A stretch of DNA of 63,202 nucleotides, the filler included, from Perkinsus olseni (taxonomy: Eukaryota), in the NCBI GenBank assembly GCA_013115125.1. It is 15 parts of 15 records of this genome, joined end to end, with 100 filler letters (N's around TTAATTAATTAA, not from the genome) between each part and the next. Parts side by side here need not be neighbours in the genome. Positions count along the whole stretch, not along the records: positions 17,096 to 21,239 come from JABANN010001311.1; 14 more parts are not named here. One strand, given 5' to 3'. This document shows, piece after piece, positions 2,711 through 56,525 of the stretch. The first letter of the stretch is position 1, and each line of letters opens with the position of its first letter. The translations under genes were made by a program, and so were the position numbers. The notes below the pieces were generated by a model that saw nothing but the letters and a program-made list of their open reading frames with translations, did not search any database and was not told the DNA's origin.

Positions 2711-3485
2711 CGTGATTGCCGATATTCAATGCTAGTACAGGTTCGGAGTCTTCGTGTTTACGTGCGTTGGGAATGGATTCGGCGCCAGGCATCATTGAAT
2801 CATCTCCGTACGAGACCGCGATGATGCATTTTAGCTTCGGAACTGCGTGGTTGTTGATGTCATTGGTGGTCAGGCGATCGCCGGGGGAAGATTCGAGAAC
2901 GAAGGTAGAAAGGGTTAAGGTAACTCCTACCAACTTGCTTTGTGGCTTCCAAGACTCACATCCTCAGGCAAGGCCAGTGAGCTCTTCATTACTGCGTTTG
3001 TGATCGCTGCGGACTCACATTTTGGATGACTCAGTAAAACAACATGTGCAGAGACTGAAGCGATCAAAGGTGTCTCAGCGGTTCCGTACCAAGCGCGTTG
3101 CCTTAAATAGTCTTGGCCAAAGTTCGGCGCACAGTGGTCCGGAGGACCCCCCTGATTTTCACTCGTCCCTCCCTTCTTTCTCCCCAGTCTTTGTATTACT
3201 TACAACTCTGACAGGCTTCGAACGGCTGCTGGTAATTTCTCTACTCCCTACTACGCTATCCATCACCCACGAAAAACGCACTTACAGCAGGAATCAACAT
3301 TGTGTGGGGTAGGAGGTGAATGGTCAATTGGTCAATCGATCAGGAGATGTAAAAAACAATTTTTTGGTTTTCATATCAATTGCGGATCAATAAATCAATT
3401 AACCAGTCAACGAGTGATTGATTTCTCGCCTCCCAATGACGAAAACGTCCCGGCAATCGAGGAGGTTCACGAACTGCTCCTGGAT

Positions 3486-3559
3486 GCCCGATTAGTTCAG
3501 CTGGATAGAATGTCTGCCTACGGAGCAGATGGTCGTAGGTTCGAATCCTGCATCAGGTA
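3486..3559 (+). tRNA. trnR: tRNA-Arg(ACG), array copy 1
   Basis: Cloverleaf; anticodon arm TCTGC-CT ACG GA-GCAGA; T-loop GGTTCGAATCC; no encoded CCA. Confidence 0.93.
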
Positions 3560-3604
3560 GGGTTTCAGCTCTGGACGACATTGCGATAACCCTCGAAAGT
3601 ATAA

Positions 3605-3686
3605 CGACACCTGGGGGATTCGAACCCTCGCGGGCATAGCCCAACGGCTTAGCAGGCCGCCGCCTTAACCACTCGGCCAAAGTGTC
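3605..3686 (-). tRNA. trnS: tRNA-Ser(GCT), array copy 1
   Basis: GACACTTTGGCCGAGTGGTTAAGGCG; anticodon arm GCGGC-CT GCT AA-GCCGT; long variable arm GGGCTATGCCC; T-loop TTCGAAT. Confidence 0.93.
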
Positions 3687-3735
3687 TCATACAACTGCCG
3701 CTGCTCTTCGGTTGGTTCACGAACTGCTCCTGGAT

Positions 3736-3809
3736 GCCCGATTGGTTCAGCTGGATAGCATGTCTGCTTACGGAGCAGATGGTCGTAGGTTCGAATCCTG
3801 CATCAGGTA
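3736..3809 (+). tRNA. trnR: tRNA-Arg(ACG), array copy 2 (variant with a D-stem mismatch)
   Basis: As copy 1 with 3 substitutions; 250 bp downstream. Confidence 0.85.
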
Positions 3810-3854
3810 GGGTTTCAGCTCTGGACGACATTGCGATAACCCTCGAAAGTATAA

Positions 3855-3936
3855 CGACACCTGGAGGATTCGAACCCTCGCGGGCATAGCCCAACGGCTT
3901 AGCAGGCCGCCGCCTTAACCACTCGGCCAAAGTGTC
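3855..3936 (-). tRNA. trnS: tRNA-Ser(GCT), array copy 2
   Basis: As copy 1 with one T-stem substitution. Confidence 0.9.
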
Positions 3937-3985
3937 TCATACAACTGCCGCTGCTCTTCGGTTGGTTCACGAACTGCTCCTGGAT

Positions 3986-4059
3986 GCCCGATTGGTTCAG
4001 CTGGATAGCATGTCTGCTTACGGAGCAGATGGTCGTAGGTTCGAATCCTGCATCAGGTA
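3986..4059 (+). tRNA. trnR: tRNA-Arg(ACG), array copy 3 (same variant as copy 2)
   Basis: Matches copy 2. Confidence 0.85.
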
Positions 4060-4104
4060 GGGTTTCAGCTCTGGACGACATTGCGATAACCCTCGAAAGT
4101 ATAA

Positions 4105-4186
4105 CGACACCTGGAGGATTCGAACCCTCGCGGGCATAGCCCAACGGCTTAGCAGGCCGCCGCCTTAACCACTCGGCCAAAGTGTC
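4105..4186 (-). tRNA. trnS: tRNA-Ser(GCT), array copy 3
   Basis: Matches copy 2; the array runs into the contig end. Confidence 0.9.
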
Positions 4187-4188
4187 TC

Positions 4189-4288
4189 NNNNNNNNNNNN
4201 NNNNNNNNNNNNNNNNNNNNNNNNNNNNNNNNTTAATTAATTAANNNNNNNNNNNNNNNNNNNNNNNNNNNNNNNNNNNNNNNNNNNN
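4189..4288. other. Artificial contig linker (N-run + TTAATTAATTAA + N-run). Also at 8472-8571, 12748-12847, 16996-17095, 21240-21339, 25478-25577, 29706-29805, 33928-34027, 38143-38242, 42342-42441, 46526-46625, 50703-50802, 54871-54970, 59037-59136
   Basis: Same 100-nt spacer with stops in all frames; intervening contig lengths fall from 4188 to 4066 nt. Confidence 0.98.
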
Positions 4289-4360
4289 GCTTCAAACACG
4301 CAATATGGCATGAATTAGACTGATTTTAGTGATTTGCATATCGAATTGGAACACCCTGTA
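4289..4360. mobile_element. Probable Tc1/mariner-type terminal inverted repeat end with TA target
   Basis: ...ttggaacaccctg|TA, i.e. TA|CAGGGTGTTCCAA on the minus strand, a typical Tc1/mariner terminus; the partner end is not in the contig. Confidence 0.5.
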
Positions 4361-5511
4361 TATCGAATCGATATTATCGATCTGTGAAAGAAGCCCGCTA
4401 GAAATGAGCACATCGGTGAAGGTCAAACCGAGCCGTTCCTGGTGGTGGACTAAAGACTCGCACGCACGTCAGCGCGATTCCTTTTATCAGATGAAGGAAT
4501 CGCGCTGACGTGCGTGAGTCTCAGAGTCTGAGACCGAGGACGGGCCGGCGATCGGTCATAACCGGAAGCAAGGGTCTGCAGAGAGATTTCGAGGTGTGAT
4601 TTCATCCAGACTAAAATGGTTGCGTAGAGATGCACGCTGAGCGGAGACACTCCGAGCCCTCGCTGAGTGTCCTGACGTCGTCAGGCTGACGAGCTACAGT
4701 AACTCGTAACTTAACACCCAGTAACTGGGCGTAATTGCGGCCTTTTGATAAGCGATGTCAGGCTTGTGTAAACTGACTTGCGACTCCTCAGAGGCTCCCG
4801 GAGTCGACCCGGGAGCCTGGAGGCTGCCCTTCCAGGGCTCGACTCCAGGCGCGCCTCCGGTACCCGGTCGAACCACAGGCGGGTCCGAGATTTCGGCTAG
4901 GTGAAACCCTGGTCTAGGTATGGACTTGATATCTTCCTGAATAGCCGTAGTGGTCACCTGGTGACCTCACCAGAAGTTGAGTTAGTCTAACGAAACTTAC
5001 TGAAGCGACTGAGGATCATTCCACGGCTGAGCATAGGCTAGAGCCTCCAGCCCGGAGGGGAATTGCGGGGCTTCAGTGAAGGCTCGAGAGAATGAGGGGA
5101 TCTGTAACGCTCGTGAGTATACCTCCATAGACAAGTCCCCACGGTACCCACTGAATCAGAGGCTCATCTGAGATGGTTGCGAGTAACAACCCGACAACCC
5201 GCATGACCCAGGCTACTAGTAGTAGCTCACTACCTCGTCGCGACCTCTACCCAGAAAATCCAAGCAGTCGATCCTCGAACCGTTATCGTTCGTCACTTAA
5301 CAGTCCTCACCAGGAGATCCGGCTAGCATAACTTGTAAATCGACTGAGTCGGGCCCCCTCCCGGGCAGAAGAACGCTGGCAGCAACTTGACAATGCCAAG
5401 GTGGCATGAAGACAATGATAATTGAGTAACGACAACCTACATTTTGGACGATTAAAGCCAGAAACTCCGATGCTCAGCCATCATGTGTAGCCCCCGCGGC
5501 TCAAAGTTTGA

Positions 5512-6329
5512 GTGGAAGGTCCCACCCAGGAAGTTTTTTTTGTTAATGGCTCAGAGGTGACTTTATTTGAGCACACATGCAAATTCGCCTTCGATGTCGG
5601 AGAGATTTCCATTGACTTCGGCCTGACCGCTGATTACAAATCCCCGTCGTCGAAGATTGAGCCTCACGCTGGTCTCGGCCTCAGATCTAGCGGGATGTCC
5701 ACAGGCAGCCCCAAGACGCTAATCGACCAGATGGTGTCGAAGAAGGTCATTGACACTGACGCTTTCTCCTTACACCTCGCCACAGAGGAGCATGCAGCTG
5801 GAAAACTTATTCTCGGTGGTGACGACCCGGACTCGTACCAAGAACCCATGAGGTTTGCGCTGGTCGTTGACACTACTTATGTGACCCTCACAGGATTCAA
5901 CATCGGCGGAGACGCTTACCCCAGGGTCCAAGTTGAAAGTCGAGCTTATCCGGACACGGGAGCCGACGTTATCGCAGTACCCGGGTTAAAGAGTTCTTGG
6001 TCCCTGTGGTTTATTCCATCGCTACCCGCGGTAAGGAGCGAGTAGCAATGAAACGCAAAGACGGATGGTACACAATCGCATGCGCCGATCGCCAGTATCT
6101 TCCTGACGTGACATTCTTGCTGAAGGGAGTGGATGGATTTGACGTTCCCTTGGTTATTACGCCCGACGCCTACGTTGAGCCTAAGCCGAAACCTGGTGGA
6201 AAAGACTGCATTCTGCTAGTTGACGACGACCCCGATAACGAGTGGACCATAGGGCATCCGGCTCTCCTTGGGAAGTATTTCTCTTTCCGTTGGGGTGAGA
6301 AGAAGATCGGTATCGCCGAATTGAAATGA
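5512..6329 (+). pseudogene. Pepsin-like (A1) aspartic protease, C-terminal part, frameshifted near 6000
   Basis: AGLGL, AFSLHL, GKLILGGDD, second catalytic YPDTGA, LPDVTF, C..L, WTIGHPAL..YFSF....KIGIA; first DTG not seen. Confidence 0.85.
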
Positions 6330-6333
6330 AGTG

Positions 6334-6888
6334 TGTCGACCCTAATCAGTGATCAGCTCAATATTTTGGATGATCGCTCCGAGCGATTCGCTCGAGGGCT
6401 TCGCGGCCCTACGATGGGGTCGTCATTAGACTGTTTGGAACAGTCTGTCTCTTTCGGCACACAGTGTGCCTGCCTGCTCCTGAGGGGCATGCGTATTTCG
6501 TTCTTTGCTAGCCAACTCAGTGTCTGGATCGTAGAATGCCCGGAATGGGAATATGCCTTCGCATATTCTTACCAGACTTATTAAGGGCAGATAGACTTCG
6601 TTAAACGGAGGATTGAGGACCCAAAAGAGTACAAGTGATTTGTGTGACGCGGCCAATACTTATCCGTGATGTTAACTAACGAAGTTCGTATTATTACGGT
6701 TACCGTAGTATGGCATCGTTCGGTATGAACTGGTGATCTTTCGCTGGCAGCAGGCGTTTCGGATTTTGGTCTCTTTGGTCACTTTAGGCCCTGTGTCTCT
6801 TTAGGCTAAGTCACTCTGGTGCACGAGTGTGAGCCTAGCTTCCTTATTTACTATTAGGTGTGATTGGCTGAGAATAGCTATCCTTACA
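6334..6888 (+). repeat. Putative solo LTR (TGT...ACA), homologous to 7400-7985
   Basis: 6573-6790 aligns by eye with 7682-7905 (cagacttatt..aacggaggat.gaggaccc..gtgacgcg.ccaat..gtgatgtt..acgaagttcgtatt); no TSD found and boundaries tentative. Confidence 0.45.
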
Positions 6889-18368: not shown

Positions 18369-19269
18369 GTGGTTATTGATTTCGGTAAAAACCCCACTAC
18401 TGGTCGTTCAGTGATGATGAGATGTTCTCGATTGGCCTTTGGCCTTTCAATAAGGCCAGCAGGCTTGGAGTCCTCTCTCGATAGATTATTCGAAATCTTA
18501 AGATCATTTCATCCTTCTGTTACTTGCATTCGTATCATGGATGACATAGTAGCTATAGGATTATCTGACGACCTAGTTAAGTTCGAGAAGGATTTACTAT
18601 ACATTCTTGACCTTTGCGGCTTTGATGTGCCACCCAATAAGATGAACTTATGGAGTGGTGATTCGTGGTCTCGTTGGCTTGGCCGTGATTGGATATGGAA
18701 CGGCTCTCAGCTACTGGTAAAAGTTCCCAACATCGACTACAAGCCCATCGCAACCAAACGTCAAGCCTTCTCAAGGGCTGGTAAATATCTGCGGTTGTGC
18801 GAGTCAGTTCCTGAAGTACAAGCACGAGGTCATGCCGACATAGTCCGTACACTATCAGGTCAAGAAGCTGAAGACTGGGATGTACCTTTGTCTACCTCCA
18901 CCACAAGGTGAATCAACATCTAGAGGCAGCCGCCACCGCATGGAACTTCATCCCACGGTGGGATTCCCACCTGAGGTTCCACTCTATTCATCAACTGAGA
19001 AGATGTTAATATCTCATGATGCCTCGAAGGATGCTTATGCTTCCGTACGTTATGACTGCACTTATTGTCAAACTATTGTGTTAGGAGCTCAATCTCACCT
19101 CTTTCCTAACACAGCTATCGCTTGGCATGCGAATAGACGGGAGCTTTATTGCATTGCATCTTCTTTGATGTCTTTACTACATTTATTGGACAATGGTTAC
19201 TATCCCGTCTTATCGCAGTTAACTATCATCATGATAGTGTGGATGAATGACAATTATCGCATATCCTGA
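18369..19269 (+). pseudogene. pol: Degraded RT-RNase H fragment of another LTR element
   Basis: RLAFGL, RIMDD, WLG, SHDASKDAY, WHANRRELY; frame change near 18900. Confidence 0.8.
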
Positions 19270-19418
19270 ATCGCTTCGCTCCGCTCTCAAGAGCGCAGTT
19301 TCATAGTCGTTTTACTTCTCAAAGATACTCCTCTCCTGGAGAGGCAAGGATCGCCGACGACGTCGGCGATCTCAAGGATATCGTTGATCCAACGGCGGAG
19401 GCCAGCAAAAGCGCAGTC

Positions 19419-21206
19419 TTGAACAGAGCCGTATCCATGAAGCTACACAAGTCTGGTGGCTGCAGCGGTATTTGGGATGTCGATTTTGACTTACTCCTGA
19501 AGGCCACCTCCGTACAAACCAACAATGCATGCAACGACTTCCCACTTGATTTGGTGTCCGGGCTCCACATTTCCAAGCTGATTCTCTCCATGATCGAAGC
19601 ATGGGAGCAACTAAGGGAAACTGATCACGGACTGAGTCGTGAAGAGGTATGCGACATCGAGGAGGCCATCAACCTCGTATCATCGAGCTATCCAGCTCGC
19701 CTTCGGAATGGTTCGAAGTTTGATGCTCCCAAAAGCCTACGAGGCCTGAAACCGAAGGATGCTTTCGATTTGGTCCTCCTGGCTCAGTCGATGGCCAGCG
19801 GTTCAAGAGAGGCTAATGTGATACCTAAGACGGCTGCTCAGACGCTGAATGGCTTCGTGGAAATCTTCGATAAGCTGCCGAGAGAGCAACGCAACGTCAC
19901 TAGTCTTCTAGAGACGTTCAAGCGTCTTACCGGTAACTTCGGGGTTGACAAGACTAACATTCAGTACTTGAAGGCCATACTAGATCCATCGAAGGGACAC
20001 GTGAGCAGGCGAGTTCTGGACGAAATCCTCGTGCACGAATCGCGGCTGAAGCTATTCGAGAAGAAGAGCAATTTGCTATCGACCTCTTTCTCATGGCCTG
20101 TTCTGGGTGTGATTTTCCGTCATAACTGGTTCAGGAGCCTCAACAGCAAGGAGTTTGACTTGAATCAGAAAGGTATCGGTATGATAACCTACGTTAACAG
20201 CTTCTTCGAGCCGGGAAACCCTGCGGGAATGGATGGCCATCGTATGATAGGAGAAGAATCCCTTCTGAGGGATGATGACGGAAGGCCCTACGATTATGAC
20301 AGCCTGAGGGAAGAGATGCTGAGCGTGCTAGTGGAGGCCATCGCAAAGTCCAGCGCTGCAAGGAGTAGCCGCCAACAGAAGATGGTTAATCGCCGAGATG
20401 TCCTTCACATGAAGTTCACTGTCGTGGTCTGGTACATCTTCAAAGCTCACCCGTCTTACTACGAGGCCGCGGAGAAAATTCCGTCTGCGAGTGCTATCAG
20501 TCTTCATCGCTCTTACTTTTCTAGAGCGTCGGCTGTCGATGTAGTCTTCAGTACTTTCGCCCCTTCCTTCGCCGAAGGCCTCCAGTGCGATGCTTGTAAC
20601 AGTCCAACCTTCGAAGGACTGAATCCTAGCGAGGTGATGATGGCGCCAAAAAATGTCATGAGGGCTATTGCTACTTTGAAAGACGAAGAGCAACGTAAGA
20701 AGGAGAAACTACAAGAAGAAGAGGAAGATGCTCAGCGGAGAATCAAGTTGGCCAAGATCGAGGAGGCCGAGCGGCAGCGTCAGGCAGCGGATAAGGAGCT
20801 GGAGAAGATGCGCTTGGAGCAAACCAATCTCAATCTCAGTAGGTTTGCTCTCATACAGAAGCAAGCCGTCAGGTTAGCTACCGAGGCTTTACGCGAGAGT
20901 CAGAAGAAGTGTATGGCCTACAAGTCCCAAGTCGAGAGTGATCTCACGGACGCGTCAAATGAGATGCTCGACACCAGAGTGTTGATCTTGGACTACACCG
21001 GTTCAAACACAAAGCACAATGAAGGCCCTACAGCGTCTACGGGAGTCTCTCTGCAAGCGAGCTGCGCTAGCACGCCTATGACGTTACTGAGCGGCGGCTG
21101 GGTAGAGAAGGCCGCACCGTACATGAGAGCCGTGCTACAAGGAAGGCCACCTGATGTCATCTATATCGACCTAGCAACACTCGCAGCTGAGCTGCTAGAA
21201 GTGTAA
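19419..21206 (+). CDS. 595-aa hypothetical protein with a coiled-coil region; C-terminus replaced by an inserted repeat at 21171
   Basis: Long ORF with an E/K/R/Q-rich helical stretch; final residues LATLAAELLEV come from the repeat also seen at 47270-47338 and 50633-50702. Confidence 0.7.
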   Translation: MNRAVSMKLHKSGGCSGIWDVDFDLLLKATSVQTNNACNDFPLDLVSGLHISKLILSMIEAWEQLRETDHGLSREEVCDIEEAINLVSSSYPARLRNGSKFDAPKSLRGLKPKDAFDLVLLAQSMASGSREANVIPKTAAQTLNGFVEIFDKLPREQRNVTSLLETFKRLTGNFGVDKTNIQYLKAILDPSKGHVSRRVLDEILVHESRLKLFEKKSNLLSTSFSWPVLGVIFRHNWFRSLNSKEFDLNQKGIGMITYVNSFFEPGNPAGMDGHRMIGEESLLRDDDGRPYDYDSLREEMLSVLVEAIAKSSAARSSRQQKMVNRRDVLHMKFTVVVWYIFKAHPSYYEAAEKIPSASAISLHRSYFSRASAVDVVFSTFAPSFAEGLQCDACNSPTFEGLNPSEVMMAPKNVMRAIATLKDEEQRKKEKLQEEEEDAQRRIKLAKIEEAERQRQAADKELEKMRLEQTNLNLSRFALIQKQAVRLATEALRESQKKCMAYKSQVESDLTDASNEMLDTRVLILDYTGSNTKHNEGPTASTGVSLQASCASTPMTLLSGGWVEKAAPYMRAVLQGRPPDVIYIDLATLAAELLEV

Positions 21207-21239
21207 CACAAGATCCGGAGATATTGGGCTGCGATGGAG
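21171..21239 (-). mobile_element. Terminus of an unclassified mobile element (hairpin + CTAG), copy A
   Basis: Identical over 69 nt to 50633-50701; diverged copy at ~47270-47338. Confidence 0.8.
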
Positions 21240-30070: not shown

Positions 30071-30370
30071 AGAAAGCAAAATAACCTCAGGGAAATTCAC
30101 TAGACACCAGTTAAACGCAGAAGTAATTGTGAGAAGCGTGGGTAACATTGAGTTGTTGTGGACGAGCCGCCCGTTCAATCTTGAGAGCCGATGACCCGGT
30201 TGGCCGAACATGGCGGTCTCAAACAACATTGGACGGGGACCCCAGGGGAGCAGCGTGCGAGTCAAGTGTTTTGATTTCATCTGCAGCACGCGGTCTGTCG
30301 GCAGTTTTGTGCGCAGTCATTCTTTTTTTCTTCAGGACGGGCGATAAATGCGGCACCGTACAGCTTCTTC

Positions 30371-31433
30371 TTGACTGCCGCAGAAAGGCATGGTATCAGT
30401 ACACTTCACCGCCTCGGTCACTCTACTCGGGCGATTAGCCAGCTCATCGGGCGAAGCCAGAGTTTGGTGTCGCGGGTCTGTCGAAGTCAGTCTACTCGTC
30501 GAGGAGCGCAGAAAGCCAGAGCCCGACGGAACAGTACATTAGGCCGTCCACACATTCTCTCTGAGAGGGAGCGGCGAGCACTGTTGAGATTGCTTAATGC
30601 GGCCAAACATCGGCAGCCACATATCACCGCAAAAGCCTTCTACAACTGCATCAATGCACCGATATCGTACGACACTTTTCTGCGGCTCGTCAGAAGCAGC
30701 TCCTGGAAATGCCGGAAGAGAGTCCGCCGAGTTTGCCCAAACACGCGATAAAGCGGCCCGACTAAAATAAGCACGTGATATTCTGAAGCGGTGCGGCGGG
30801 AAGCGGTCCGAAGTGCTAAAATTCTTTCGTCACGGTGTTGGCTTATATCTTGATGGTGTATCGATAGGCTTCGACGAGCATGGTACCCGGGCCAGTGCCC
30901 GAGAACGAACCTGGACGCATCCAACGCTGGCTGCTGATACATTCAGAAGCTGCTTTTCATGCAGCTGTAAGGTGAAGATCGTGGCGATGACTCGATACGG
31001 CCAGCAATCGGATATCGTGAAGATTAGGGATAGTTCTGCAGCATCGTATTGCGGAGTGTTGCAGCGGGATGCTATTCCGAGGTTGCAGGAAAGATGCAGG
31101 GAAAACCACGATAACCGAAAGGTTATCATCGCGGATAATTTCGCGAGTCAAAAGACAAAAGCCTGTATGCAGGCTTTGGAGAGGGCAGGATGCAAATATG
31201 CTGCGTATCCGGTACGCAGCCCTGACATCAACCCGATTGAAAATGCGTTCAGTGTATTGAAAGGCCGCCCTCGTGCCGAAGCGACGGCTAGCCATCCGTG
31301 TACAACGGAAGCCGACTTTATTGAGCCAGTCCGCCGAATCTTCCGGTCTATTGATACCAACAGCTTAATAAGTACGATGCCGAGAAGACTACAGGCCCTC
31401 CAGGCTACTCGTGGCGGTCTAATCGACTACTAG
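30371..31433 (+). pseudogene. Tc1/IS630-family DD34E transposase, disrupted near 30750-30810
   Basis: N-terminal HTH (GHSTRAISQLIGRSQSLVSR), GRP..LS; catalytic IADN to SPDINPIEN with exactly 34 residues between D and E. Confidence 0.92.
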
Positions 31434-32436
31434 CCTTTGGTAACCCACCCGTTGCAATCTCTGGTCCATCACACATGGCGTGTATTTGTCTCTTAGGTTC
31501 TTATTCCGCCAGCTCGTCGGCTGTCTCGTTCCGCCAGCTTATTCTGTGCCTACGACGCAGCTTGTCGGGGTAGCAGATGTCCCCAAAGATTGACGCTTAT
31601 CGTCTTTAAAGGGTGTCATAGCACGAGGTACGTCAGGTCTTCCATCGGATGTGCTGTCCAAACTCTTTCAGCATTTCAGGCCTTTCTCCTCAGTCACTCG
31701 GACTCGTGACCCATCGTGTTACTCTATTCCGTGAATGGCGTCCTATCGGTGTTATCTCTCGATACAGCGTAAATATAGGTACCCAACTACCATCAATCGC
31801 TGTGGATGAGAAGTACTCTGTATGTTTCTAAGATAAATTGTTGCGTTTTATTTGTTATAGTAATATAGCAGGGGGTCGATAAGAGCCGTGTGATATACTT
31901 CCCGAGTGCAGCTCTCTCATCAATTGGAGGGCAGTGTGTTTCATGATCAGCGAATTGTATAAACGCTTCCGCAACGCAAAATGGACCTATTTTTCCTTCT
32001 TGCTGTTTGCACTCATCGACCCGTGAAGGGATTGTACGCCCAGACCGTTTCGCCCGAATTGATCAATTGATCGATCGAACAACTGAAAATCTGTAGAATA
32101 TAAAAATATATCCATATAATAATTAGCTGATCATTCGATCAAAATATCAGATTTTTCGTCGCAATGGAGTATCTCGACATCGAAGCGGTCGCCTCTTCAC
32201 CGAGTCAGCCGCCAAGCGGCGCTGCGGGGCCGGAAGATACTGCATCCATTGAGAACTTCATAATTCCGGACAGTAGCCAGGTTACCATTTTTTCTAGTCG
32301 GGAAGCACGCACACGTGCTAGAGACGTACGCATCCTGCGAAGTGTCAGACTCAGCAATATGGCTCATCTGGCTTCAATATCCCAAATGATGCTCCGTTGC
32401 GAGCGTCACCGCACTACTCTTGCTTCTATCTAATAA

Positions 32437-33210
32437 ATGGTCTCACCCATGCGATGGCAGTGAATCACTGCTGGCAGCAGCAGCCGCAGCAATCCGCTGC
32501 GGCCAGAACTGGATTTGACCAAAGCAGACTTCGGCAAGGTCATTCGAGAAGCCTTCAAAGAGCATGACGTGCCCTTACTTTACTTTTGCGTCGCCAGCGA
32601 AAAGCATTCCGACTCCAACACTCACTATCACGCCGCAACCAGATCTTCTCGTTGGCACCGCTGCAGAAGAATAGCGCGCTGGTTGTTGCGCCACCGTGTT
32701 GCCGTCAGCTTCAAGGCTTTCAAATCATATCTCGCCTCGTACAAATACTGCGTCAAAAGAGATGTTGCTCCCTCCTTGAGCGAGGGTCATCCGCCGTATC
32801 CCTCGGAACCTGTACAGCGGGAGCTGCGCATCGTCGGCGAGAAACAGGAAGCTGGTGAAGCTTGCAAAATCCGTCGCCTGAGCGATATTGCGGGGTGGGT
32901 GGTGAGCAGAAAACTGAAGACGGAGCGGGAGTTTCTGGCCGCGGCCAGCAAAGAAAAGAACCTGAAGAGCTTTATTCTGGATCACCGAGATACACCGGGT
33001 ACTATGCTCAAGAGGATATGGGGGATGGAGTCCGCGGAGCCTGATCTGATAGGAGCATCCAAATCGAGGATGCAAATTTTGGAGGAGACAGCCGATTCCA
33101 GTGTATGTGCGTGCAACGGCGTCACCTCCAGTGATATCGAGACTATTCTGACCAGGAATGAAGTGCCGGTCCACTCATTCGTTCGCGCCATCAGGCGCAC
33201 GCCTCGGCGG
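32437..33210 (+). pseudogene. rep: HUH (Y1) rolling-circle Rep endonuclease, CRESS-virus/Replitron-like; in-frame TGA at 32461 and 3' truncation by an LTR-like repeat
   Basis: Motif I remnant WQ*ITA; motif II CVASEKHSDSNTHYHAA; motif III YKYCVK. Confidence 0.85.
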
Positions 33211-46600: not shown

Positions 46601-47269
46601 NNNNNNNNNNNNNNNNNNNNNNNNNCACTTGTGATAAGTCTGTTACGGTTTACTTATCGCTAAGCAAGTCACGCGTCTAAGTTCATTCACGCGCAGCATC
46701 ACTCACTGTCAGGTACGATTAGTACGAAACGTGACCCAAGTACGTAGGCAATACGCTACTGGTGGAGTCACAAGATACTGTGTCGCATATTTTCGCTTAT
46801 CGGTTTGCTCGGGAAGATGGGCATGCCATGTTTGCCAGTACGAATGGAGCCCAGCGATTGAGTTTCTTTAACTTTGCAAGCCGGCGACAGTTCTCAACCA
46901 CGAAGTCACAATGTCGACAGTGCCGGCCGCCGGGCCGGGGCGCCCGCCGCAGGCGGGGGCCGGCCCCCGCCACGCACCACCCGCAGCACTCGGCCGGGGG
47001 AGCGCGNNNNNNNNNNCACCCGTCATAACGTCCCTCCCCTATTGCCTTTTTGTCTTTTGGGGGCCCGGCTTGTGAACCCTTGGGCTGGGGGCCCGGGGCC
47101 GCACACATCTCCTCTCGCATCTGCATCGCGCGTTCATCGCCCTCTGTTCTTTTGCCTATGCCTGACCGCCCTCGCATATATCTCTCACGTCCAGAACCTA
47201 GTAACATGTTCTATTATGCTGTGGTTTGCTCACGGTGTATGGCCTAAGCGTAGCGTCCGTTGAAACGAT

Positions 47270-47338
47270 CTCCATCACATCTGAGTACCTCCTGATCTTA
47301 CGTTGCACGTCTAGCGGCTCAGCTGCGAGTGTTGCTAG
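47270..47338 (+). mobile_element. Hairpin + CTAG element terminus, copy B (diverged); the element probably extends left toward 46626
   Basis: Reverse complement ctagcaacactcgcagctgagccgctagacgtgcaacgtaagatc..gatggag matches copies A and C. Confidence 0.75.
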
Positions 47339-50300
47339 GTCGAAGGCCGCTAGTTGGTCACATTGCGGAGTCTCCTTGATGTAGCGCTCACGTAGATCAG
47401 CCTGTTTTTGACGCCAGGCTTCTACGTATTCCTCTACGCTCGACCGCATACGCTCTTGATAATCGGATAGAACTGGTAACAGACCTCGAGCGAAGGGTAG
47501 ATATTCGGCGTTGAGGTAGCGGGAGTCTAATTTATCGTAATCGATGGTAGATGGAGGCGCATCACCAGGTAGCCTCCCACCGTAGCTATAGTGTAGATAA
47601 CTTGGGCTCATGTAGGTCCAATGCTTAGGACTGCAATTATAGATACGGATGGCTAACATAAGGTTATATAGTTGCTCCATAGCATCCTCACTAGATCCGC
47701 TGATGGTGCGAGCAGTCTCTGTTAGATCACGATGTGCCCTCTCCCAAAAGGAGAGATGGGCTGAATAGCCAGGTAGGCAATACAACCGACACCGATGTTT
47801 AGCCATCATAGATATCACTGCCTTAGATAATATCGATCCATGAGCTTTGTCGCACAGGGCTACACTTGGCGGCCCATGTTCGCAGAATATAGAGTGGATC
47901 GCAGCAGCGATAGTAGGTCCTTTGCAGTTGCGTAGTGGTCTAGATGCGATAAAGCCGCTCACAGCATCTTGGCAGACTAGAGCATAATAATCCTTAGACG
48001 GGTCGAGTAGATAGGTATTCTCGCCATGAGAGTCTCCACCTCGATTCCGTGTAGATGCTCTTCCGTAGGGACCTAGGATATCAATCCCAACTAGTTGCCA
48101 TAGCTGCGTAACAACCATATCCTGGACCGCATTGTTAGCATATCGAATGGCTTTAGATGCCCTCGCCTTGAGACACAGAGTACAACTAGATGTCGTTTTA
48201 GATATGATCTTGGACAAGCCACGGCCCATGAATCGTCTCTGCAGGTAGAGACGTAGCTTCCGTCTCCCTGGGTGCGATAGAATATAGTGGTAGATCGCGC
48301 AGAGGAGGCTGCATACTAGGCGCGCATACCTTGATACGCCCAGATAGATCATACCATCGGCATCATCATCTTCACGTGAGGGCCCTTCATACCACGGTCG
48401 CTGCCTTATGATCCCGTTAGGATCTAGGTGACAGTGGTGCTCCATTCGATTGAAGGTAGTAGTTCTCATCCCTACTGACCCTCTAGGAACGTGTCCTGAT
48501 AGATAATCTCGGAACTTAGCAAGATCTTCGTCTTCAGACTGACAGCGTCTGAGGCAGGTATTTAGATCGTCGTTGAACTCGATGTTGTCCTGCAGAGAGC
48601 TTAGATCCGCATCGCTCCCTCTAGAAGTATCGATATGTCTTGCAAGTCTTCTTAATTCGTCCTTCATCTCAGCCGTCAGGTCTGTCTTGTCGATATCAGG
48701 GATATCTAGACCATCACAGTTGATAAGATGACATCCTCCACATAGATTGGGATCAGTCGTCTCACTCGGCGAAGGACATTTAGTACACCGGATCAATGAT
48801 CCGGGATCATAGCCATAGATTTTTGGCTAGGGTCATGATTTCCTAGCTCAGGCTGTTTGCCCTGACCGCGGCCCGCGTTCACGACAGTGCTAGTGGTCGT
48901 CGTAGATGTAGACTCACAGCCTAGGATAGTAGATCCAGTGGTAGAGGTAGATGACCATGAAGTTTTAGGTGCAAGCACAGCGAAGCACCCCGCGTTACCA
49001 ATAGTGCAGTCATGGTCTAGACTCGATGCTGCCGAACGGCAGCACCCCGCGTTACTGGTGTTAGTGGGTTCCGTTGGAGGAGCCCACCCCGCGTCGTTCA
49101 TAGATGACGCAATAGAGCAGTAGACTTCCCCATCGATCTTGAAGTCTCTCTCCTCGTCGGGTACATCATGAGGGTCAATGACCCTGGGTCATAGATGACT
49201 TTCGACGAGTCGATGGCCTCAGGTAGCTTAGTACCATCGAATATCCGTCCCATAGAGTAACGTGATATAGAATCAGCTGGATTGCAACCAGATGGTATGT
49301 GCCTAACTGTAGCGTTTAGTTGAGCACATAGATCACGTACAGCTTGTAGGCGACGTTTCTCAGGGCTAGGTAGCCGTTCGTCGTTAGCTGGCCGCCTAAG
49401 GCGATAGACGGTTAGCTCGGAATCGATGGCAACAACCAGGGGATAGATGGGCACTTCTGGACTCAGATTATTGACAGGGGCTTGGTTCTTCCCATAGACA
49501 GTAGTTATGGGTAGATACGCCGATAGAGTCCTCACCCATAGTAGACCACGATGGAGTGCGTCTAGCTCTTTCCTGGGAATAGACCAGGATAGATTTGCAG
49601 TAACGTAGAGGCCTCCTTTAGCAGAGAGCCGGACATCAGGATGAGACTTGAGTCGTAGATCAGCTCCCCAGGCATCTTTAGATGCGTCGGTGCTGAGGAT
49701 CAACTCGCTGTCATAAGGTAGATACCGTGGAGTAGATACCATCGTACAGATTCGAGTCGACTCACGAGTCCATCGAACAACATGTTGTTGTAGTTGATGA
49801 GAGATAGTCACATCCCACTCCTTGGTCTCTTGGCAAATGCTCCTCCAGATAGACCTGCCGAGGATATCATGCTCGATGAGCAGGCCAAGAGGATCATATA
49901 GAGAAGCCAAGGCGCTACTGGCAGAGCGCTTGGTCATAGATGTAGGTCCCAAGGGTTCTAGGCTGGGATCAGCAGACATAGTTGGGTAGAGACCGTCATT
50001 CGAAGGCAGATAGTCGTACCCTAATAGATGCCCGCGTTTCTCGATCCCCCCTTCGAGCTGAGATAGCCAGTTCTCAAATTTCTTGAGATCTTCAGCCGGT
50101 AGGTCATGCCCCTTGAGGACGTAGGATACGAAGCCATAGTTGCGTTGAGCTTCCGCAACCGAGGACCCTAGAACGTAGATGTCGTCCACGAACTTCAACA
50201 TCTTTATGCCGCTAGGTATCGGAGGACCGTTACATAGGTACTCGAAGGCCTTGTCAGAGGGGTAGAGTAGACAATCCTTAATCTTAGCGGCTTCTATAAC

Positions 50301-50632
50301 AGATAGATCTAACTCGACGGCGTTGCCATCGGTCTCACGCACTAGTTGCGTCAGATGGTAGATCTCGTCGGTGGCGTCGTCCACAGTGCTGTCCAGCATA
50401 TTAGGTGCTGATCTAGTTCCGAACCCTACGCGGGCCCATAGAACTGTAAAGGGTCCTATACAAGTGTATCCGACATAGGGGATATCACTGTAGTTAGATT
50501 GCATCCTACAGAATGCTTTACTTAGATCTCCAGCAACGAAATATTCAGATGATCGTAGCAGGAGTAGGGTACCGTGTAGGTTATTTTGAGGATGGCCGCC
50601 TCTCAGGGAGAATAGATTGGCCTCTCGATAAT
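47339..50632 (-). mobile_element. pol: BEL/Pao-like LTR retrotransposon pol (RT-RNase H 49098-50632, integrase to 47339), frameshifted; both ends cut by CTAG-element termini
   Basis: LDYR..N, DLSKAF, RVGFG, FVDD, LASLYDPLG, STDAS, SIPRKELDA, NPAD; integrase H..H..C..C, GIDILGPY, CD, FWER.H. Confidence 0.92.
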
Positions 50633-50702
50633 CTAGCAACACTCGCAGCTGAGCTGCTAGAAGTGTAACACAAGATCCGGAGATATTGGGCTGCGATGGA
50701 GA
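50633..50702 (-). mobile_element. Hairpin + CTAG element terminus, copy C
   Basis: Identical to 21171-21239; ends the contig. Confidence 0.8.
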
Positions 50703-56244: not shown

Positions 56245-56525
56245 ATCGATAAGGTTAAGAGCTTCGAGAGCATCATTGACATCGACAAGGCTAAGAGCTT
56301 CGAGAGTACCATTGACATCGACAAGGTTAAGAGCTTCGAGAGTACCATTGACATCGACAAGGTTAAGAGCTTCGAGAGTACCATTGACATCGACAAGGTT
56401 AAGAGCTTCGAGAGCACCATTGACATCGACAAGGTTAAGGGCTTCGAGAGCACCATTGATATCGACAAGGTTAAGAGCCTTGAGAGCACCATTGAGATCG
56501 ACCAGGTTAAGAGCTTCAAGAGCGC
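56245..56525 (+). repeat. 36-bp coding minisatellite, ~8 copies (IDKVKSFESTID)
   Basis: atcgacaaggttaagagcttcgagagtaccattgac repeated. Confidence 0.95.

Follow-up and report, generated by a model that had tools for sequence, protein, structure and literature searches.

Two groups of Helitron-like elements have been defined, HLE1 with a 5' TC and insertion at A|T, and HLE2 with inverted repeats and insertion at T|T (PMC11417382, PMC5148889; here and below, PMC numbers stand for the available parts of those texts). A preference for the tetranucleotide target TNAT has been documented for FoHeli1/2, and self-insertion of FoHeli has been discussed (PMC5148889, PMC3627910). A reversed orientation of RepHel has been reported for some HLE2 elements (PMC3627910, PMC5148889). 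As for GIY-YIG nucleases, the available account of HELIANO gives one captured domain, which belongs to an HLE2 family inserting at T|T, and the available part of PMC6431247 contains no Helitron with GIY-YIG.

We analysed a window of 63,202 nucleotides from Perkinsus olseni (assembly GCA_013115125.1), which consists of 15 contigs of ~4.1 kb each with N spacers between them. Perkinsus is a parasite of shellfish. The original prediction, made from this window alone, was that one mobile terminus, with a hairpin and CTAG, recurs at three unrelated sites. We report that its 69-mer is the 3' (termination) end of a non-coding mobile element of ~1.1 kb, here called the 69-mer family. Elsewhere in the window, tandem repeats occur at one contig end with a period of 250 bp (3464-4188) and within an open reading frame (ORF) with a period of 36 bp (56245-56523).

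Element ends, junctions and target

Self-BLAST of the window confirmed that the same end lies at 21171 and 50633, with 69/69 nt identity between 21171-21239 (copy A) and 50633-50701 (copy C), and in diverged form in an inverted copy of 83-84% identity with its terminus at 47338 (copy B). Copies A and C both stop at the ends of their contigs. Copy A (21171..21239, minus strand) is the last 69 nt of the element, with its 3' end at 21171 and the remainder beyond the contig end, and copy C (50633..50702, minus strand) is the last 70 nt, identical to A. Copy B (46626..47338, plus strand) is the 3' part of a diverged subfamily and resembles a further locus, L031, at 95.5% over the last 246 nt and 84.7% over 157 nt more; it is poorly resolved around an N10 gap, and its 5' limit is uncertain. 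Read toward the junction, the sequence is as first described: GCAGC-TCA-GCTGC (stem GCGGC in copy B), 8 nt and CTAG, with G, G and A as the next bases (GT, GT and AT in copies A, B and C). In copy A the hairpin, with a 5-bp stem and a 3-nt loop, occupies 21183..21195 (minus strand), ending 12 nt before the terminus, and the element-derived CTAG occupies 21171..21174 (minus strand). The corresponding features of copy B are a hairpin with one G-T pair (47314..47326, plus strand), and the terminal CTAG (47335..47338, plus strand). The 5-bp stem is present in the minimum-energy fold of most end variants and is kept across subfamilies with a different loop, but it was no more stable than shuffled sequence in five of five end variants (z -0.85 to +0.40).

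The sites differ in what they interrupt. Copies B and C sit in the pol of one Bel/Pao LTR retrotransposon (47339..50632, minus strand; RT/RNase H region and integrase; Pfam Peptidase_A17 1e-13, Integrase_H2C2 3.5e-6), which therefore carries two independent insertions in opposite orientations: copy B in the integrase ORF with the junction CTAG^GT, and copy C in the reverse-transcriptase ORF with CTAG^AT. Copy A adjoins a host half-target (21169..21170, minus strand; GT on the element strand) within an ORF (19251-21170) of no known family, without a match in Pfam or Atlas. Its cysteine cluster and junction motif recall KDZ-type transposases, to which we presume a resemblance. CTAG does fit the interrupted frames, as had been noted, but this is weak evidence alone: two of the three frames have no in-frame stop, and CTN GAT reads Leu-Asp whatever N may be.

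Searched against the genome assembly (3,353 contigs, 39.9 Mb), the 69-mer gave 40 matches (the best 40 of 41 candidates), 31 at 99-100% identity and nine at 78-90%, a recurrence far beyond chance. Nearly all of them lie at contig ends, with flanks unrelated to each other, so the assembler accounts for the length of 69 nt, but the boundary itself is biological. Two interior contigs begin at CTAG and extend for ~1,050 nt, a third gives the other end, and contig overlap yields a full length of ~1,126 bp. A second and more numerous subfamily was found through its ends, and a sister copy is complete at 1,024 bp with both junctions within one contig. The interior has no shared long reading frame and no codon pattern: mismatches fall evenly on the three positions (64/70/75), and most indels have lengths that are not divisible by 3; given these frames, mismatches and indels, a coding role for the interior is rejected. 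Terminal or asymmetric inverted repeats were likewise sought and rejected, there being no exact inverted match of at least 6 nt between the terminal 60-70 nt in four of four end pairs.

Other non-coding DNA follows the same layout. At least four more families (L165/C1135, L065 103-1126, L067 and L070) obey this end rule and have a GC-rich hairpin motif close to their 5' end, and some of them are stacked head to tail with the 69-mer family. Contig C1135 (L165) represents a sister family without a blastn match to the 69-mer family, and by eye it holds tRNA-like fragments. Loci L010 and L075 each record an independent insertion of the 69-mer family, oppositely oriented, in its own 3' region, both at CTNG^GT. 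Sixteen loci are short contigs with two 69-mer-family ends 0.6-4 kb apart, which clustered insertion or an effect of contig breaks may explain.

The target was read from the junctions, whose counts refer to collected loci and not to all copies (the best 40 per search, of 41, 53 and 64 candidates). At the hairpin end, CTAG was present in 82 of 82 unique junctions; the next base was G in 37, A in 35, T in 10 and C in none, and the second base was T in all 82 (vs 25% background, p ~2e-50). The other end starts with GTG in 46/46 unique junctions, preceded by CTTG (13), CTAG (13), CTCG (10), CTGG (9) or CCAG (1), that is by CTNG in 45 of the 46. This word makes up 1.6% of the window tetramers, and these 46 flanks showed no base preference beyond it. 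Host letters can be told by their variation, which affects N on the 5' side and D on the 3' side; this makes the empty site CTNG^DT, which is the target of the element (D being A, G or T). Because CTAG is invariant at the hairpin end while the host letters vary, it belongs to the element, and the original reading of CTAG as a target or microhomology has to be replaced. The cut position is ambiguous by one base: that G is invariant, and the cut could be one base earlier. Insertion takes place in one fixed orientation, and the joined ends of the element, CTAG^GT, would by their sequence mimic the target hexamer.

Empty sites and recent movement

Four sequencing runs (X1, X3, X7 and X8) were mapped over 47020-50702. 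Insertions B and C are both present in X1 and X3 and missing from X7 and X8. At B, contigs from the latter two runs leave the window sequence with a single CTAG kept and other letters following; at C, their match breaks off with the initial C, which is what a different following letter would produce. A search by translation for the sequence on the far side of site C gave no convincing partner. A low-depth joint between 47340 and 50629 in X7/X8 is read as mis-mapping between two similar ends. Polymorphic insertions, together with the 31 end copies at 99-100% identity, indicate recent movement. Read depth in the last bin reached 169,116 in X1 and 86,355 in X3, compared with 912 in X7 and 1,181 in X8 (flanks 84-187); depth is not copy number, and these values hint at a lineage-specific burst.

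Comparison of flanks among the collected sequences reduced 137 flanks to 13 rows, one of which was a false pattern match. Paralogous empty sites fitting the rule were seen for L133 (vs L149), L010 (vs four family members), L075 (vs L115) and the end on contig C27 (vs its own duplicate), and in two cases a left and a right flank could be paired on a single unbroken paralog, with no duplication. The hexamer is not kept at three paralogous sites that have diverged (84-93% identity). Empty sites also carry CNAG words other than CTAG. A duplicated CTAG target is thus rejected on empty alleles, paired flanks and junction counts alike: with the other end found, filled and empty sites could be compared for the duplication that had been envisaged, and there is none.

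Taken together, the genome copies, the second end and the empty alleles establish the terminus as mobile, and from the junctions its integration looks to be of the HUH type, as was first proposed. The alternatives named as refuting this proposal do not fit: a canonical A|T Helitron does not agree with a 5' flank ending in G (46/46) or with G or A after CTAG (72/82), and neither a TIR/DDE nor an LTR element agrees with the lack of inverted repeats and of target duplication.

Candidate enzyme and rival explanations

We hold with good confidence that the 69-mer family is a non-autonomous rolling-circle element, recently mobile and strict in its choice of a self-mimicking target, and that its driver is most likely a clade of RepHel proteins that carry GIY-YIG. 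On the transferred strand the element would consist of GTG, a GC-rich hairpin 30-60 nt inside, non-coding DNA, the small hairpin, 8 nt and CTAG. By the logic of the junctions, and on the models for IS91 (PMC13181058) and Helraiser (PMC4778049), a Y2 HUH enzyme would nick the donor after the flanking CTNG. One strand would be peeled off as far as the element's own CTAG, and would be circularised, its ends meeting as CTAG^GT. Nicking with unchanged specificity would then pick CTNG^DT in the host, without duplication. The target site would be re-created at both junctions, which can account for the nesting seen in L010 and L075 and for the stacking, head to tail, with sister families.

Genes for RepHel in this genome gave six matches by Pfam and 21 by protein search, and have HUH and YxxxY motifs. 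PIF1 and a C-terminal GIY-YIG were found in three of four RepHel elements scanned, and in contig C3183 the RepHel-GIY gene is a single open frame of 2,746 aa. At E <= 1e-10 the Rep profile recovered 628 protein clusters, with members ranging from Perkinsus to hagfish, and its only match in PDB was Helraiser (7LCC), a weak one (E 0.066). The nearest public relatives of the RepHel proteins carry the name Perkinsus olseni, in keeping with a Perkinsus host. Indirect support suggests that this clade supplies the enzyme in trans and that its own ends obey the same rule. In an anchored alignment, four non-autonomous 5' ends, those of the C1135 family among them, served as queries and every CNAG site was scored; among the 5,153 control sites that form the null, with one true copy left out, the highest score was 42. 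Higher scores were reached on four of the ten RepHel contigs (C3148, 66; C2983, 56; C74, 48; C27, 47), and all four above-null sites end in CAC, though this was not demanded by the scan. An unrelated metagenome locus scored 43, and the scores of 47-48 (C27 and C74) are close to noise and need other support. For these two, the 5' end has CTNG at 6/6 junctions, and the DNA beside the C27 end is homologous to the DNA that precedes the OTU exon in the RepHel gene of C74. In C27 and C2983 the 5' end points toward an OTU-type exon 0.7-1.2 kb further downstream; in C27 that exon is not joined to a RepHel gene within the contig.

The ends on RepHel contigs have in common with the non-autonomous ends the pattern CTNG^GTG with a GC-rich hairpin 30-60 nt inside, a pattern which over all collected DNA retrieved 13 distinct sequences, 12 of them already known ends and one then confirmed. 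At the other end, a tandem protease-like family has one member broken up by the RepHel block of C1103. Homology to its paralog breaks off on the left following CTG, with the 5' part of the element deleted there, and resumes on the right immediately past CTAG^GT. Contig C2983 also stops at CTAG^GT, a single copy at a contig end. Both of these RepHel 3' ends have a weak fold (-1.7 and -2.3 kcal/mol), and extension of C3199 and C2983 to further copies gave self matches only. In C3148, the end most similar to that of the 69-mer family is placed beyond the RepHel-GIY gene, 1.2 kb downstream, in opposite orientation and at one junction, a layout that suggests a reversed gene orientation in a sub-clade. 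No RepHel element had ends closely similar to those of the 69-mer family, with which they share the short motif and the layout. When a profile of the 69-mer-family interior was run against the RepHel contigs, only weak matches came up, upstream of the genes in C74 (E 0.026) and C3183 (E 0.83); they are no more than a hint. A metagenome scan returned one locus among 60 candidates, a single copy with no definable ends.

Further arrangements were seen on the same contigs. In C3148 (L201-L202) a 5' end of the same type is followed head to tail by a 3' end of the C1135 family. The OTU-RepHel copy in C74 (L203) appears rearranged, with the 5' end inverted inside the Rep region and a 57-bp inverted duplication at the contig start. 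C27 (L140) carries at 3217-6813 a second and more divergent RepHel type in which no GIY-YIG was detected; tRNA-like fragments come next, and no ends were identified for this element.

The rolling-circle mechanism may be right and the mover another HUH enzyme, for example a helicase-less Y2 transposase of the IS91 type, with RepHel elements sharing or hosting such ends. The end and target logic is indeed closely that of IS91 (PMC13181058), the exact ends of the 69-mer family occur on no RepHel copy, and its 3' hairpin end is near none of the ten RepHel contigs. Yet ends of the same rule stand in element position on OTU/RepHel contigs, and the C1103 RepHel block ends at CTAG^GT, so we regard another HUH mover as unlikely.

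Less probable again is a site-specific recombinase (tyrosine, Crypton/DIRS-like, or serine) with crossover in a 6-bp core, CTAGGT, common to the target. It would account for the 6-bp near-direct repeat over both junctions and the lack of duplication, and a circle is plausible. However, inverted repeats for a binding site are absent, and host and element switch at one point inside the hexamer, N being host-derived on one side and D on the other. Such a switch would suit a single-strand nick better than the whole-overlap exchange of tyrosine recombinases.

The original prediction had raised a possible link to the Rep at 32437, a CRESS-like Y1 Rep which, with its relatives, would move the element in Replitron style. 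It is an HUH enzyme within the window, has four relatives in the genome, and its full-length relatives combine the Y1 Rep with an SF3-type helicase. Neither element end, however, is on any of the five Rep contigs (blastn; anchored scan best 15-40, within the null), the Rep adjoins a Tc1/mariner-type DDE gene in three of the five, and Replitrons have no helicase and insert after RG (PMC10288648). With no common ends, the link is rejected and this mover is highly improbable; the evidence points to the RepHel-GIY clade, elsewhere in the genome. In those three contigs the Y1 Rep lies downstream of the DDE gene on the same strand (window 30275-33210, L092, L093 and L094), and in C394 the DDE and Rep genes are bracketed by two copies of a short element that has inverted ends. 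The DDE and Rep-helicase pair is possibly a composite element. The window copy of the Rep is apparently cut at ~33213 by an LTR-like repeat.

That the 69-mer is an assembly artefact, an overlap left where contigs break at a repeat, has a negligible probability: its length of 69-73 nt and its contig-end position do reflect the assembler, but the boundary, target rule, second end and empty alleles are independent of contig breaks, and the empty alleles refute it.

Comparison with known systems

With its probable RepHel-GIY-YIG driver, the 69-mer family shares several features with HLE1 (Helraiser, PDB 7LCC): a 3' hairpin ~12 nt before the terminal CTAG, no duplication, no inverted repeats, and a candidate transposase composed of a Y2 Rep and a PIF1 helicase. 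The CTRR 3' end of HLE1 is matched by CTAG at 82/82 junctions, and the stem is present, albeit not beyond shuffles. Unlike HLE1, it has a 5' GTG (46/46) instead of TC, a target hexamer CTNG^DT instead of A|T, a GC-rich hairpin inside the 5' end, and a candidate RepHel that ends in GIY-YIG. With HLE2 (Helitron2, Helentrons, Fusarium FoHeli and proto-Helentron) it shares hairpins near both ends, and OTU and nuclease accessory domains occur in that group; it differs in having no asymmetric inverted repeats, no T|T and the ends GTG...CTAG, and its candidate nuclease is GIY-YIG and not AP-type. On our best reading, it therefore fits neither described Helitron group.

Elements outside the Helitrons resemble it in other respects. 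In the IS91 family (IS91, IS801 and IS1294) there is a target tetranucleotide at the initiating end (CTTG in IS91, CTNG here), a related tetranucleotide with a palindrome at the terminating end (CTCG in IS91, CTAG here), and no duplication (PMC13181058). The 69-mer family, in contrast, is eukaryotic, its target runs two bases past the cut (DT), and its candidate enzyme is a giant RepHel-GIY and not a helicase-less TnpA. Replitrons are also eukaryotic HUH transposons with short near-direct end repeats and oriented insertion, but Replitron-1 goes in after RG, its ends are fuzzy, its duplications vary, and its Rep is of the Y1 type with HUQ and no helicase (PMC10288648), whereas the target here is CTNG^DT and the ends are sharp. 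DDE and LTR elements differ in that no terminal inverted or long direct repeats with duplication occur here. A near-direct hexamer as in Crypton/DIRS elements is present, but the switch point lies inside it.

We found no description of GTG...CTAG ends in the literature within our scope, to which Repbase, subscription journals and supplements did not belong, and no ends or target rule for the RepHel-GIY-YIG clade in the literature searched. Ends and a target rule are now available for this large clade. Annotation tools seeking TC...CTRR or inverted repeats would miss the 69-mer family, and its recent, polymorphic movement means that specificity is open to study from existing sequence data. It may be that the clade constitutes a third Helitron-like group apart from HLE1 and HLE2, with GTG...CTAG ends and an IS91-style six-base target mimicking the circle junction, and with the window family as its recently amplifying non-autonomous passenger, a proposal to which we give about even weight. 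Described Helitrons choose A|T or T|T loosely, and a strict, oriented six-base target equal to the element's own circle junction would place the logic of IS91 in a eukaryote. By analogy with these systems, target choice appears to work like that of IS91, and the 3' end and likely enzyme like those of a Helitron.
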